Assembly: GCA_029856145.1 (NCBI GenBank)
Contig: JAHQWK010000004.1
Coordinates: 1 to 64,000, forward strand
Reading direction: 5' to 3'
DNA: 64,000 bases
Source: Promethearchaeia archaeon
GTDB taxonomy: Archaea; Asgardarchaeota; Lokiarchaeia; Sigyniarchaeales; SOKP01
Under the pieces are notes generated by a model. That model did not search any database. It had not been told where the DNA came from and worked only from the letters and a program-made list of their open reading frames with translations. A program made the translations under genes and the position numbers. Numbering within the stretch: position 1 is the stretch's first letter; each line of letters opens with the position of its first letter. This document shows positions 35,908 through 49,555 of the stretch, in pieces.

Positions 35908-36741
35908 ATGTATGAATATAATATGATAGCAATGGATAAGGCTCAAAATATTAATACTAATTCAGAAAAGTTTCAAATGCTGGGATTTGGATTATTAAAT
36001 ATCTCAGATATAGAATCTGAAGGCACTTTTAAAATCATTCTTCAAAAAGGTATAGGAGTTCCTCTTATCCAAAATATTTTAGAACTCTATAAGAAAGAAA
36101 TTATAACCAAAAAACAAGGAAGCTCAATTATTCCATTAAATGAATTTACCATTCATATCCAATATTTCAATAATAAGGACAAAGAAATTTCTGTGATTTT
36201 GTATATGGAAGAAAAAGAACCAAGTATTGCGGTTAATTTTTCACAGCTTTACTTCCTGTCTAAAAAAATCAATAAAAAAATTCTTTCAAATGCTCCATTA
36301 TCTGAATTAGTCAAAATATTCGAAGACAAAATCAAGATTCCAAAATCTTCTGGAGTCATAGCTATCTTTGTTATTAGTTCCACAGGCAGTCCATTTCTTT
36401 CAAAAATTAATAAAAATCGCAACAATATAGCAGACCATGAAGTTCACATTGGTGGATTTATCTCTGCTTTGTTGTCGTTTTCAAATACAATTATTGGAGA
36501 AGAAACAGGGGCAAAATTGAAGGAAATAAACTTTGGGAATCAGCAATTTTACGTAATATCCAAAAGTAACGTAATTTTTGCCTTTTTAGTAGAAAATATG
36601 AATTCCTTGCTTCAAAGATATATGTATCTTATTGCAGATGAATTCATTTACGATTTCAACAATTATTTAAAAGGTTTTAATGGAGATGTAACTCCATTTG
36701 CATCTTTTGAAGATAAAATTAACCAATATTTTATTATTTAA
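35908..36741 (+). CDS. longin-domain protein, first gene of the che cluster
   Basis: C-terminal half IFVISSTGSPF...IGGFISALLSFS...LKEINFGN...IADEF...FNGDVTPFASF, a Fuz/Mon1/sedlin-type longin pattern. Confidence 0.7.
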   Translation: MYEYNMIAMDKAQNINTNSEKFQMLGFGLLNISDIESEGTFKIILQKGIGVPLIQNILELYKKEIITKKQGSSIIPLNEFTIHIQYFNNKDKEISVILYMEEKEPSIAVNFSQLYFLSKKINKKILSNAPLSELVKIFEDKIKIPKSSGVIAIFVISSTGSPFLSKINKNRNNIADHEVHIGGFISALLSFSNTIIGEETGAKLKEINFGNQQFYVISKSNVIFAFLVENMNSLLQRYMYLIADEFIYDFNNYLKGFNGDVTPFASFEDKINQYFII

Positions 36742-36761
36742 AAAATGAAGGTAAGAAAAAA

Positions 36762-37292
36762 ATGGTTCAAAAACAGGAATATGAAGATATGGATCAAATT
36801 TCCATCCTATCGTTTAAGATTGGTAGGGAAGAGTTCGTTATCGATCTCTTCGATGTGAAAGAAATAATTCAAGCAGGTCTAATAAGAAAATTACCAAAAA
36901 GCTTAGATTATATAGATGGAATCTATAATTACAGAGGGGAAATTATTCACATAATTAATTTAAAGAAAAAATTGAATTTGAATCAATATATTTTGTATTC
37001 AAGAAACTCCTCTATCGAAGAAGAATCAAGTACGTCGAAAAATTTCATTATAATTCTTAAAGTTGATAATAATCTGGTAGGATTTTATGTTGATCAAATA
37101 ATCAGTATTGATCATATTGATCCCACTGAGATTGTTGGATTAAGCCCAATCTTTCAAACTAATGTTGCTATGGAATATATTAAAGGAATTATTAACTTTG
37201 AACGGCGACCAAGAGTTATGCTTGATTTAAGCAAAATTTTTAGTGAAGTTGAGAAATTCAAAATTGAACAAGATTTATCATCATTAACATAA
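36762..37292 (+). CDS. cheW: chemotaxis coupling protein CheW
   Basis: SFKIGREEF, VKEII, GIYNYRGEII, GFYVD. Confidence 0.93.
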   Translation: MVQKQEYEDMDQISILSFKIGREEFVIDLFDVKEIIQAGLIRKLPKSLDYIDGIYNYRGEIIHIINLKKKLNLNQYILYSRNSSIEEESSTSKNFIIILKVDNNLVGFYVDQIISIDHIDPTEIVGLSPIFQTNVAMEYIKGIINFERRPRVMLDLSKIFSEVEKFKIEQDLSSLT

Positions 37293-37312
37293 ATTAAAAA
37301 GGAGTTGATAAA

Positions 37313-37690
37313 ATGACAAATAATAAAAAAAAAGTTTTGATAGTTGATGATGCAGCCTTTACAAGGAACATGCTTAAAAATATAATAAACAAGATCGAAC
37401 AAATTGAAGTTATCGGTGAAGCTTCAAATGGAGTGGAAGCTATCTCTTTATACAAGAAATTAAATCCTGATTTAGTTACTATGGATTTGGTTATGCCTGA
37501 AAAGGGTGGTATTGAGGCAACTGAAGAGATTCTAAAAATTAACTCAAAAGCATTGATAGTAGTGGTTTCTGCACTCGGTCAGGAGGCTCTTGTACTTGAG
37601 GCAGCAAAAAAAGGGGCAAAGGACTTTATCCAAAAACCATTCAAAACAGAGCAAATATTAGAAGTTATGGATCGAATTTTAAAGAAATAA
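37313..37690 (+). CDS. cheY: chemotaxis response regulator CheY
   Basis: VDDA, TMDLVMP (phospho-Asp), VSALGQ, QKPF. Confidence 0.93.
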   Translation: MTNNKKKVLIVDDAAFTRNMLKNIINKIEQIEVIGEASNGVEAISLYKKLNPDLVTMDLVMPEKGGIEATEEILKINSKALIVVVSALGQEALVLEAAKKGAKDFIQKPFKTEQILEVMDRILKK

Positions 37691-46912: not shown

Positions 46913-47452
46913 GTGAATAATATTAAAACCTATGGACGTATTGAAAAAATGGATAGAAATGGTGAGGCTTTCTTACCCATAGGTCATTATTTTATCACAA
47001 ATTGTAAGAATAAACCAAAAAATATTCATCCAAAAGTATCAATTTATGGATTAGGCTCTTGTATTGCTCTAATTCTTATTGATTTCAAAAATAAAGTATG
47101 TGGAATGTCTCACATTTTACTTCCTAAAGCCCGTCTAAATAAAACAATAGATTATCCTCATAAATATGCAGATCTCTCTTTAAAATTATTAATTCAAGAT
47201 CTAAAAAAGCATGGAGCTGTGAAAGAAAACATAATGGCAATCATAGTAGGGGGTTCAAAAATTTTTAATTTAGATGAAAATTTTATGGGGATTGATAATA
47301 CTAAAGCTATTAAAGAACAATTGGAAAAATTAAAGATTAAAGTTATCGGAGAAGATACTGGAGGATCTGAAGGGAGGGGGATAATATTTGATACTAAAGA
47401 TTTCGCTGTTTACGTTAAATTAACAAGAGAACAAAATTATAAAAAAATTTAA
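46913..47452 (+). CDS. cheD: chemoreceptor glutamine deamidase CheD
   Basis: GLGSCI, GMSHILLP, KYAD, EDTGG..GR. Confidence 0.92.
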   Translation: MNNIKTYGRIEKMDRNGEAFLPIGHYFITNCKNKPKNIHPKVSIYGLGSCIALILIDFKNKVCGMSHILLPKARLNKTIDYPHKYADLSLKLLIQDLKKHGAVKENIMAIIVGGSKIFNLDENFMGIDNTKAIKEQLEKLKIKVIGEDTGGSEGRGIIFDTKDFAVYVKLTREQNYKKI

Positions 47453-47496
47453 TATATAAAAAGAGAATGTCATAAAAATTGGAAGAGGAAATAAAA

Positions 47497-48165
47497 ATGA
47501 ATGAAAAGGTCACAAATCAATCTGCTAAGATAAACCTAACAGAAGCACAATTGGATATGTTAAAAGAAATTGGCAATATCGGTTCTGGACATGCAATAAC
47601 AGCACTTTCTGAGATATTGAATAAAAATGTAGAAGTTTCATTAACATCAGCAGAAATACATTCCTTTTGGAAAGTTCCAGATCTGTTTGATAATCATAAT
47701 ATAGAAGTAGTAGTTATATATTCTGAAATTCCCTTTAATTCGGATCTCGCAATTATCCAAATATTTCCCAAAGAATCAATAATTAATCTGATAAATTTAT
47801 TAAACGATTATGATAAAAAATCCATAGATAATGTAAATAGCAATAATGATTTGGACGATTTCTCCTATAGCATTATAAATGAAATCGGTAATATTTTGAG
47901 TGGCCATTATGCTAGTGCTTTAGCAGATTTGTTGTCAATTAAACTAATCCCAAAGGTGCCAAAAGTAGCAATTGATACATTAAATGCCATCCTAAATTGC
48001 ATTATCGCAAAATATTCCCAATTGATAGATTATTTGATATTAATAAATACAAAATTAATAGTTTCAGATTTGAATATAAATGGAACAATTTGCCTTATTC
48101 CAAGTATTGAAATTCTAAGGAGTTTATTTGAGATTTTAAACGTAAAATATGATATGAACTTATAA
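47497..48165 (+). CDS. cheC: CheY-P phosphatase CheC
   Basis: EIGNIGSG and EIGNILSG (two E-x-x-N sites); GAGGA SD before ATG 47497. Confidence 0.92.
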   Translation: MNEKVTNQSAKINLTEAQLDMLKEIGNIGSGHAITALSEILNKNVEVSLTSAEIHSFWKVPDLFDNHNIEVVVIYSEIPFNSDLAIIQIFPKESIINLINLLNDYDKKSIDNVNSNNDLDDFSYSIINEIGNILSGHYASALADLLSIKLIPKVPKVAIDTLNAILNCIIAKYSQLIDYLILINTKLIVSDLNINGTICLIPSIEILRSLFEILNVKYDMNL

Positions 48166-48178
48166 GTAGGAGTTTTAT

Positions 48179-49555
48179 ATGTCGATAGACGTATTAATAG
48201 CCGATGACAGTATGTATTTAAGAAAGAGTATAGCAGATATCCTTAAAGAACATGATTTAATAAATATAGTTGATTATGCTAAGGACGGAATTGAAGCGGT
48301 TAAATTTGTAAAAAAATACAGCCCTGATGTTTTAGTTTTAGACTTAGTGATGCCTAAAATGAACGGATTAGATGCATTCAAACTAATTATGGAAGGCCAT
48401 CCAACTCCTACAGTTATTCTATCAGCTATTAGCCCTAAAAATTTGGATTCCTCTATTCAAGCATTGTTAATGGGAGCTTTTGATTATATTATAAAACCTG
48501 GAGGCCTTGGTGCTAAAGATTTGCCTAGGTTTCGTGAAGAATTACTTGCTAAAGTATTATTAGCTTCACAATCTCAGATAAAGAGAATTTTTAAGACAGA
48601 AGAAAATTTATTAAGTAAGCGTAAATCACTTCGCCAAGAAATGATCGATCGAATTTTTGATTTTGGACAATACATAAATCAACTAAAACCTATTGAAGAA
48701 ATTGAAGAAAAACGGGAAATTGACTCTTTTGAAATAATGAAAGTAAAGGCAATTCTCAAGGATGAAATTAAACCAGCAGTAATTGATGAAACCTCCAGTA
48801 AAACAGAAATCAAATCAACTAAAAAACTAGAGGGTGAAATCAGTTCAAAAATACAATCAAAATCAAGTGAATCATTAAAAATACTTAAAACAAGAAAACA
48901 GAAATTAGCTTCTGTATTAGATAATAAAAAGAAAGAAGTTGCATCCATTCCTGATCTTTCCCCTGTTAGAGGATTTGCTTTAACTTCAAATGTTATAGTT
49001 ATGGGTGCTAGTGTGGGGGGCCCCAGAACAATTACTACAATCTTAAGAGAAATTCCCAGAAATTATAACACTCCAATTTTAATTGTTCAACACTTATCTT
49101 CTCATTTTACAGAAGCTTTTGCAGATAATTTAAATATGGAATGCGAATTAGAAATAAAAGTTGCGAAAAACGGAGATCAACTTCAATCAGGTCAAGTTTA
49201 TATCGCACCTGGAGATAAGCATATGGAAATTACCGTAGATAATAAAACACCTTCAATTAAAATCTATAAGGGAGCACCAGTTAATTTTTGTATGCCTTCT
49301 ATCGATGTTTTATTTTTTTCTGCGGCAAAAATTTTTAGAAATCGAGCTATGGGGATACTTCTAACCGGTATGGGTTCTGATGGTGTTGAAGGGTTAGGAG
49401 CAATAAAAAGAGTAGGCGGAAAAACAATCTCCGAGGCAGAGGAAACATGTATACTATATGCAATGCCAAAATTCGCAGTAGAAAAAGGTTTCGCTGATTT
49501 TATCTTGCCAAATTATGAAATTAAAGATCAAATTACTAAATTCATTAAAAATTAA
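48179..49555 (+). CDS. cheB: second CheB with long charged linker
   Basis: REC LDLVMP; GASVGGP, VQHL, GMGSDG; extended E/K/S-rich interdomain region. Confidence 0.92.
   Translation: MSIDVLIADDSMYLRKSIADILKEHDLINIVDYAKDGIEAVKFVKKYSPDVLVLDLVMPKMNGLDAFKLIMEGHPTPTVILSAISPKNLDSSIQALLMGAFDYIIKPGGLGAKDLPRFREELLAKVLLASQSQIKRIFKTEENLLSKRKSLRQEMIDRIFDFGQYINQLKPIEEIEEKREIDSFEIMKVKAILKDEIKPAVIDETSSKTEIKSTKKLEGEISSKIQSKSSESLKILKTRKQKLASVLDNKKKEVASIPDLSPVRGFALTSNVIVMGASVGGPRTITTILREIPRNYNTPILIVQHLSSHFTEAFADNLNMECELEIKVAKNGDQLQSGQVYIAPGDKHMEITVDNKTPSIKIYKGAPVNFCMPSIDVLFFSAAKIFRNRAMGILLTGMGSDGVEGLGAIKRVGGKTISEAEETCILYAMPKFAVEKGFADFILPNYEIKDQITKFIKN

Follow-up and report, generated by a model that had tools for sequence, protein, structure and literature searches.

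A chemosensory operon of Lokiarchaeia with adaptor-like and gelsolin-like accessory genes, no detectable motor and a possible connection to the actin cortex

In the F1-type chemotaxis system of Euryarchaeota, the CheA/W/Y/B/R/C/D proteins signal through CheF, which acts on the ArlCDE components of the archaellum. A Che-like pathway without a rotary motor is exemplified by the Frz pathway of Myxococcus xanthus, which acts on the small GTPase MglA and the Roadblock protein MglB. Among Asgard archaea, che genes have been reported in Lokiarchaeum ossiferum and in 27 of 97 metagenome-assembled genomes, with putative arrays at the L. ossiferum membrane (PMC9834061); crawling has been found to depend on Lokiactin, in a study that makes no mention of chemotaxis (PMC13716822). 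Here we describe an operon (positions 35908-49555, forward strand) from a stretch of 64,000 nucleotides (the window) at the start of contig C3 (JAHQWK010000004.1) in a Lokiarchaeia genome (Promethearchaeia archaeon, GCA_029856145.1, denoted G000; 3.55 Mb, 97% complete). An intact Che core is combined in this operon with four non-Che genes, denoted IG, HYP, GEL and LONG. The receptors are unlinked, no motor is detectable, and IG and HYP, along with GEL in one clade, are co-inherited strictly with che. The che genes themselves are shared with the published Lokiarchaeia gene sets (PMC9834061), whereas our literature search, in which coverage of subscription papers was thin, found no description of the linkage of IG, HYP and GEL.

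The operon consists of 12 intact, co-oriented genes and one cheR remnant, with intergenic gaps of 5-115 bp, as had been recognized in a first-pass annotation of the sequence that listed 13 closely spaced units. The GC content (28.7% compared to 29.4% in the flanks) gives no sign of recent transfer. Pfam matches confirm the Che core, which includes cheW (36762-37292, E 3e-25), cheY (37313-37690), cheA (37775-39850; Hpt-P2-dimerisation-HATPase-CheW), a CheW-CheC-CheC fusion (cheWCC; 42879-44858) with three ExxN sites and one ExxH site, cheB with REC and methylesterase domains (45743-46888), cheD (46913-47452), cheC (47479-48165) and a second cheB (48179-49555). CheA carries the Hpt His and the N-box Asn; in the N-box, Tyr takes the usual Asp position throughout the CheA clade to which this protein belongs (clade A), and other Asgard CheAs often have Ser. 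In CheY, the acidic pocket, the phospho-Asp, Ser and Lys are all present, the output face shows hardly any variation within the clade, and the ratio of nonsynonymous to synonymous substitution rates (dN/dS) is about 0.02. Judged from the domain make-up of CheA and the CheB/CheC/CheD/CheR set, the system appears to be of the F1 type, in line with the combination of CheA-P2, CheC and CheD that the annotation had pointed out and that the Pfam domains support. The nearest match of CheY, Thermotoga CheY (E 1e-38, compared to E 3e-26 for the archaeal CheY of 6ekg/7od9), is a suggestive pointer to the same class. The locus shares with the euryarchaeal F1 system the Che core, the P2-containing CheA, REC-CheB and a stand-alone CheY, but differs from it in the closer relationship of CheY to the Thermotoga protein than to archaeal CheY, the presence of the CheW-CheC-CheC fusion and of dedicated IG, HYP and GEL, and the lack of a detected CheF or archaellum.

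The cheR remnant (45531-45737) corresponds to the N-terminal part of the gene and lacks 800 bp compared to G200, with the break at approximately 45676. Because two relatives, G181 and G221, align across the junction at the same point, this internal deletion is inherited and not an assembly error. The remnant is 62% identical to an intact CheR encoded on contig C29, and intact CheR is found only outside the operon; other contigs also encode a third CheB and a CheR-CheD fusion with a long charged linker (L129:5517-7568, that is, C2:205516-207567 of G000), and similar fusions lie beside some related operons. No methyl-accepting chemotaxis protein (MCP) is encoded in the operon or, according to a whole-genome search, on the contig of the window, but three transmembrane MCPs and one fragment are encoded elsewhere in the genome, so that the description of the system as receptor-less holds only locally.

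The absence of cheF and arl genes that had been claimed for the window extends to the entire genome. CheF (PF04283) gave no match in G000 or in G189, G204, G206 and G249, with positive controls, although a very divergent CheF could escape this search. Archaellins (PF01917), which exceed the cut-off in three of the 400 Asgard genomes compared, are missing in G000 and in all 47 genomes that encode HYP, again with positive controls. Queries for ArlB, ArlF, ArlG and ArlJ taken from Asgard genomes G138 and G047 yielded no convincing match in G000, the ArlH query gave weak matches only, and the ArlI query matched only a T2SSE-type ATPase on contig C20. A complete archaellum accompanied by cheF, which would have spoken against the original suggestion, was not found in the genome. 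The C20 locus (L128:5238-11363; C20:131237-137362 of G000), which adjoins ribosomal protein genes, encodes a divergent type IV filament-like set consisting of the ATPase, a small pilin-like protein, a membrane protein and a weakly matching A24 peptidase; the T2SSF platform has no match in G000 (controls positive). The existence of this locus, together with the archaellum encoded by L. ossiferum and the scattered archaellum parts and some CheF homologues reported in an Asgard survey (PMC13705601), leaves some room for an output through a filament of the type IV-like kind or an archaellum that has diverged very strongly, with the non-Che genes being secondary. However, the C20-type ATPase is present in 102 of 135 genomes of the family, whether or not they carry che, and went undetected in the che-positive G189, G193, G184, G151 and G153. 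The single-contig genome G189 is especially telling: it retains CheY/A/B/C/D/R, IG, HYP, GEL and a GTPase discussed below but lacks archaellin, CheF and an assembly ATPase for type IV filaments, its sole PF00437 match being a 553-aa frame also present in G000. A filament output thus appears quite improbable.

The comparison set includes, among its 400 Asgard genomes, 161 of the Lokiarchaeia class. CheA-like matches were detected in 84 genomes, the one in G165 being a P2-repeat-type protein only. Clade A of CheA (47-87% identity) is represented in 47 of the 161 Lokiarchaeia-class genomes, from three families. Among the loci fetched, 28 contain the complete series cheA-IG-HYP-cheWCC-GEL, mostly following LONG-cheW-cheY, with the 3' part of the operon (cheR, cheB, cheD, cheC) varying among relatives. 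Orthologues of IG and GEL are present in 46 and 41 of the 47 clade-A genomes, respectively; most of the gaps are contig ends, whereas G128 truly lacks GEL, and neither gene has an orthologue in the 109 CheA-less Lokiarchaeia. HYP is found as a single copy in 47 of the 400 genomes, all of which encode CheA. Distant HYP homologues, retrieved in a search of 1.8 billion proteins, occur in che operons of a different order, cheW-cheY-cheB-cheA-cheD-IG-HYP-cheW/C-cheR, the CheA of which is only 24-27% identical. As the CheW-CheC-CheC fusion comes after HYP in every intact operon seen, so a CheW-CheC fusion follows IG-HYP in the operons of this second clade wherever the contig continues, and short contigs show the same IG-HYP-cheW order. 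The IG-HYP-cheWCC run is the core that spans the two CheA clades; GEL, never found without CheA but absent from the second clade, is clade-specific, and LONG is separable. The linkage of non-Che genes to che that had been anticipated from the window is therefore conserved across three families, but the gelsolin and longin genes are not its tightest members; the fixed partners are IG and HYP. In G128 (L055), IG nests among sequences of family f1, which hints at operon transfer between families.

IG, HYP, GEL and LONG are under purifying selection, with dN/dS values of 0.07-0.22, similar to those of che genes. Their distances track those of CheA (Spearman 0.75-0.92), as those of any linked block would. 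Conceivably, the non-Che genes are passengers that belong to large Asgard families, carried and deleted with the block and functionally unrelated to it: this is true in part for LONG, and the genome encodes approximately 7 gelsolin-like and more than 10 longin-like proteins and dozens of small GTPases, with IG paralogues (21-29% identity) in 155 of the 161 Lokiarchaeia genomes. As a general explanation, this seems quite improbable given that HYP, for which there is no paralogue, is always accompanied by CheA, and that IG-HYP persist through the change of gene order and the deep divergence of CheA. Furthermore, in G189, where the operon is split into cheY-cheA-IG-HYP and cheWCC-GEL-cheR-cheB-cheD-cheC-GTPase-cheB, IG-HYP and GEL each stayed with one half. 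Because they are lost whenever chemotaxis is lost, IG, HYP and GEL are candidates for the link of sensing to membrane and actin.

The product of IG (39913-41934) is a cytoplasmic protein without transmembrane segments that consists of an N-terminal motif (residues ~1-24), a mu-homology domain (MHD; ~45-391) and two Ig-like domains (DUF11). In the AlphaFold2 (AF2) model (mean predicted local distance difference test score, pLDDT, 83.6), residues 45-391 superpose on whole MHDs, the best match being AP-4 mu4 (VIA Z 16.7, root-mean-square deviation (rmsd) 2.5 over 211 aa), and the top seven VIA matches (Z 14.4-16.7) are all MHDs, with AP-2, AP-3, AP-1 and delta-COP after AP-4. Foldseek identified AP-3 mu3A (E 9e-9), and the best sequence-profile match is AP-3 mu (E 0.03). 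On the evidence of the model, IG has the fold of AP/COPI adaptor MHDs. Unlike AP-complex mu subunits, with whose MHDs, as with that of delta-COP, it superposes in full (Z 12-17), IG has no N-terminal longin domain in the chain, only about 45 mostly low-confidence residues preceding the MHD, and it contains an insert of approximately 100 aa and the two extra Ig domains. Although mu C-terminal domains were reported to be sparse in Asgard archaea (PMC10307638), the IG family is nearly universal in Lokiarchaeia, with one Che-linked group. When the N-terminal motif is excluded from tree construction, the Che-linked IGs still group apart from the paralogues (approximate likelihood ratio test SH-aLRT 91, unstarred), and the motif itself is found only in these proteins and not in the standalone paralogues, about 20 neighbourhoods of which showed no common partner. 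Atlas searches with IG returned DUF11 clusters only. Because of a resemblance seen by eye, the motif was considered as a FliM-like CheY-binding peptide, but this idea was dropped because its profile found nothing in PDB at E 10 and the invariant F3 and G21 do not match the FliM peptide.

The properties of IG are also compatible with an upstream role, whereby IG, HYP and GEL would position the receptor array at, or anchor it to, the membrane or actin filaments, similarly to ParC/ParP, with the CheY target encoded elsewhere. The adaptor fold suits such a function, as do the many IG orthologues that are 300-550 aa longer and contain heptad-like segments fit for a tether, the fixed neighbour CheW-CheC-CheC, a protein of an array-associated type, and the putative arrays seen in L. 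ossiferum. However, anchoring leaves the output unexplained even though, with no archaellum or CheF, the output face of CheY is almost invariant, and G138 has che without the module. We regard this as a possible but doubtful alternative, nearly as likely as an adaptor that leads from the Che complex to actin.

HYP (41984-42835), the other core accessory gene, encodes an orphan protein. Its AF2 model (pLDDT 89) contains a region, residues 94-207, that resembles PD-(D/E)xK nucleases (VIA Z 7.8 and 7.7, rmsd 3-4.3), and this fold accounts for almost all of the top rows, whereas Foldseek yielded no match at E <0.001 and atlas searches gave nothing usable. D130 is conserved, but the strand that follows has the residues L-C-Y, of which the Cys alone is conserved (register assigned by eye), so the (D/E)xK motif is apparently replaced. 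HYP probably has a dead PD-(D/E)xK fold and can be read as a scaffold. Complex prediction for CheY with HYP and IG residues 1-48 in the presence of Mg returned 'no answer' (score 0.01, mark 0.32) and provides no evidence either way.

The gelsolin-domain protein of the first-pass annotation, GEL (44974-45519), is below the Pfam cut-off when analysed as a single sequence (Gelsolin, E 0.028), but the assignment is upheld at the family level: 17 of the 28 members hit Gelsolin, and the family profile matches ProGel of a Thorarchaeon best in PDB (7c2f, E 3e-7) and other gelsolins as well. The protein comprises one gelsolin domain (~24-95) with invariant W45 and G47 (WxG), a variable linker and a conserved heptad-like C-terminal coil. 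One gelsolin domain with WxG is shared with ProGel and 1DGelX, and the overall layout is 1DGelX-like, the coil being a possible counterpart of domain X; unlike 1DGelX, GEL forms a separate orthologous group tied to che and, at 181 aa, is seemingly shorter than the Thor protein, which severs and nucleates actin and migrates near actin on gels (PMC7444086). Actin is encoded in the genome.

LONG (35908-36741, start likely at 35923) is probably a tandem longin-like protein, although this is weakly shown: the longin call made for the window protein finds no Pfam match there, whereas Fuz_longin_1 is detected in 6 of 32 orthologues (best E 5e-5), and PDB matches are to Roadblock only, at E ~0.3. LONG is kept alone, beside EF2, in the CheA-less G191 and G226 and is missing from the che-positive G189 and the G128 operon; it is a loosely attached neighbour, separable from Che both ways. 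A longin paralogue next to an MCP on contig C9 was rejected as independent support, given that it is part of a longin-Roadblock pair common among genomes without CheA and that the MCP gene was inserted locally. Upstream of such a pair, G209 (L138) and G222 (L149) encode an MCP and a REC-type protein, although no CheA was detected in these two genomes. Members of family f16 (L078, L090, L091, L094, L096), with an unrelated che clade that also encodes a 1150-aa protein with six CheW domains, contain directly upstream of cheW a gene for a 240-250-aa protein that looks longin-like by eye and has no Pfam match.

Related operons (n=20) additionally encode a 318-aa Roadblock-Rab GTPase fusion, in most same-genus relatives after cheC. 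The gene is absent from the window operon, with a 49%-identical copy on C9, and five CheA-less genomes have 28-35% matches only. Much as in Frz-MglA/MglB, these relatives combine a Che-like pathway without a rotary motor with a putative Roadblock and small GTPase partner, except that here the two are joined in one protein and the GTPase resembles Rab. PAS histidine kinases adjoin many operon copies; upstream of the window operon (32890-35124), genes for a divergent PAS-PAS histidine kinase and a 96-aa protein are retained genus-wide, even where che is deleted. Along with the lack of a motor, the resemblance of IG and LONG to trafficking parts and the existence of alternative cellular function (ACF)-class systems in bacteria (PMC13747009), these kinases raise the prospect that the phosphorelay controls gene expression, partner attachment or membrane traffic via the Roadblock-GTPase or REC/kinase partners. 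Against this scenario, the operon has no conserved DNA-binding regulator. Moreover, its complete complement of adaptation and phosphatase components (two CheB, CheD, several CheC sites) suits fast gradient sensing, and we consider an output other than movement unlikely.

Altogether, the genomic evidence indicates that these genes likely form a dedicated cortical module. Under the preferred scenario, this is a working chemosensory system of the F1 type, in which receptors encoded elsewhere would control CheA, which would phosphorylate CheY, and CheC, CheW-CheC-CheC, CheD, the two CheB and the unlinked CheR, with activities known from their families, would reset and adapt the signal. IG and HYP might form an adaptor or scaffold that takes the position of the euryarchaeal CheF and connects the Che complex with the cell cortex, with GEL in the window clade and the Roadblock-Rab GTPase in relatives added as an actin-side arm; the likely output would be altered growth or retraction of protrusions. 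Such cortical coupling through an IG-HYP adaptor, with the signal passed on to actin by GEL and the GTPase, is a tentative proposal based on genome comparison. The more specific possibility, close to the original suggestion, that phosphorylated CheY acts on Lokiactin through IG, HYP and a dedicated gelsolin, and in this way directs protrusions or crawling, is less probable.

Several considerations weigh against a connection between Che and the cortex, all support for which is genomic. GEL, having no orthologue in the second CheA clade or in G128, is not essential to the module; the window operon does not encode the GTPase, and fusions of this kind occur commonly in these genomes. Counts of co-occurrence suggest more tests than were in fact made, given that related genomes are not independent and a single block deletion removes neighbours together, as in G191 and G226. 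The shared fold of IG and the adaptors shows no function. G138 contains che clusters, with CheAs ~25% identical, that have no IG, HYP or GEL orthologues and coexist with an archaellum locus. Most L. ossiferum cells crawl with changing direction, only 6 of 117 having moved persistently one way (PMC13716822), and P. syntrophicum lacks che genes (PMC9834061).

Some other Asgard loci deserve mention. In G138, the ordered arlG-F-H-I-J-B locus and three more archaellins (L121:6500-12980 and L120:9719-11860) are followed just downstream by a Rag-like GTPase gene, and there is no CheF match in this genome. The same genome has a longin-cheW-cheA run (L076:7547-15795), and, 3-5 kb away on the opposite strand, genes for a Rab-like GTPase and an actin-family protein; orthology of this longin with LONG was rejected (probability 1%). 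A complete arl-like cluster of G047 (L122:1-11680) lies ~3 kb from two tubulin-like genes. Proteins of 550-570 aa related to the N-terminal part of CheA are encoded in four loci (L086:7952-9646, L087:7863-9545, L088 and L089); the two that were scanned contain repeated P2 domains, show no kinase match and lie near a gene with an actin-related-looking start.

About 50 Lokiarchaeia genomes thus have a Che system accompanied by the same few additional genes but no archaellum. Asgard cells crawl on actin (PMC13716822) and some of them carry che (PMC9834061), and the open question of what CheY controls is now narrowed to four named proteins, among which IG and HYP, as fixed partners, come first for experimental study, followed by GEL as a clade-specific addition, with the longin gene being the weakest lead. 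Even without a link to actin, it would be surprising to find a coat-adaptor fold at work in a chemosensory array. If direct steering is confirmed, this would be a prokaryotic chemotaxis pathway with the actin cytoskeleton, rather than a filament motor, as its effector, and, should the actin link prove true, bacterial-type sensing would be joined to a eukaryote-like cytoskeleton in relatives of the ancestor of eukaryotes.

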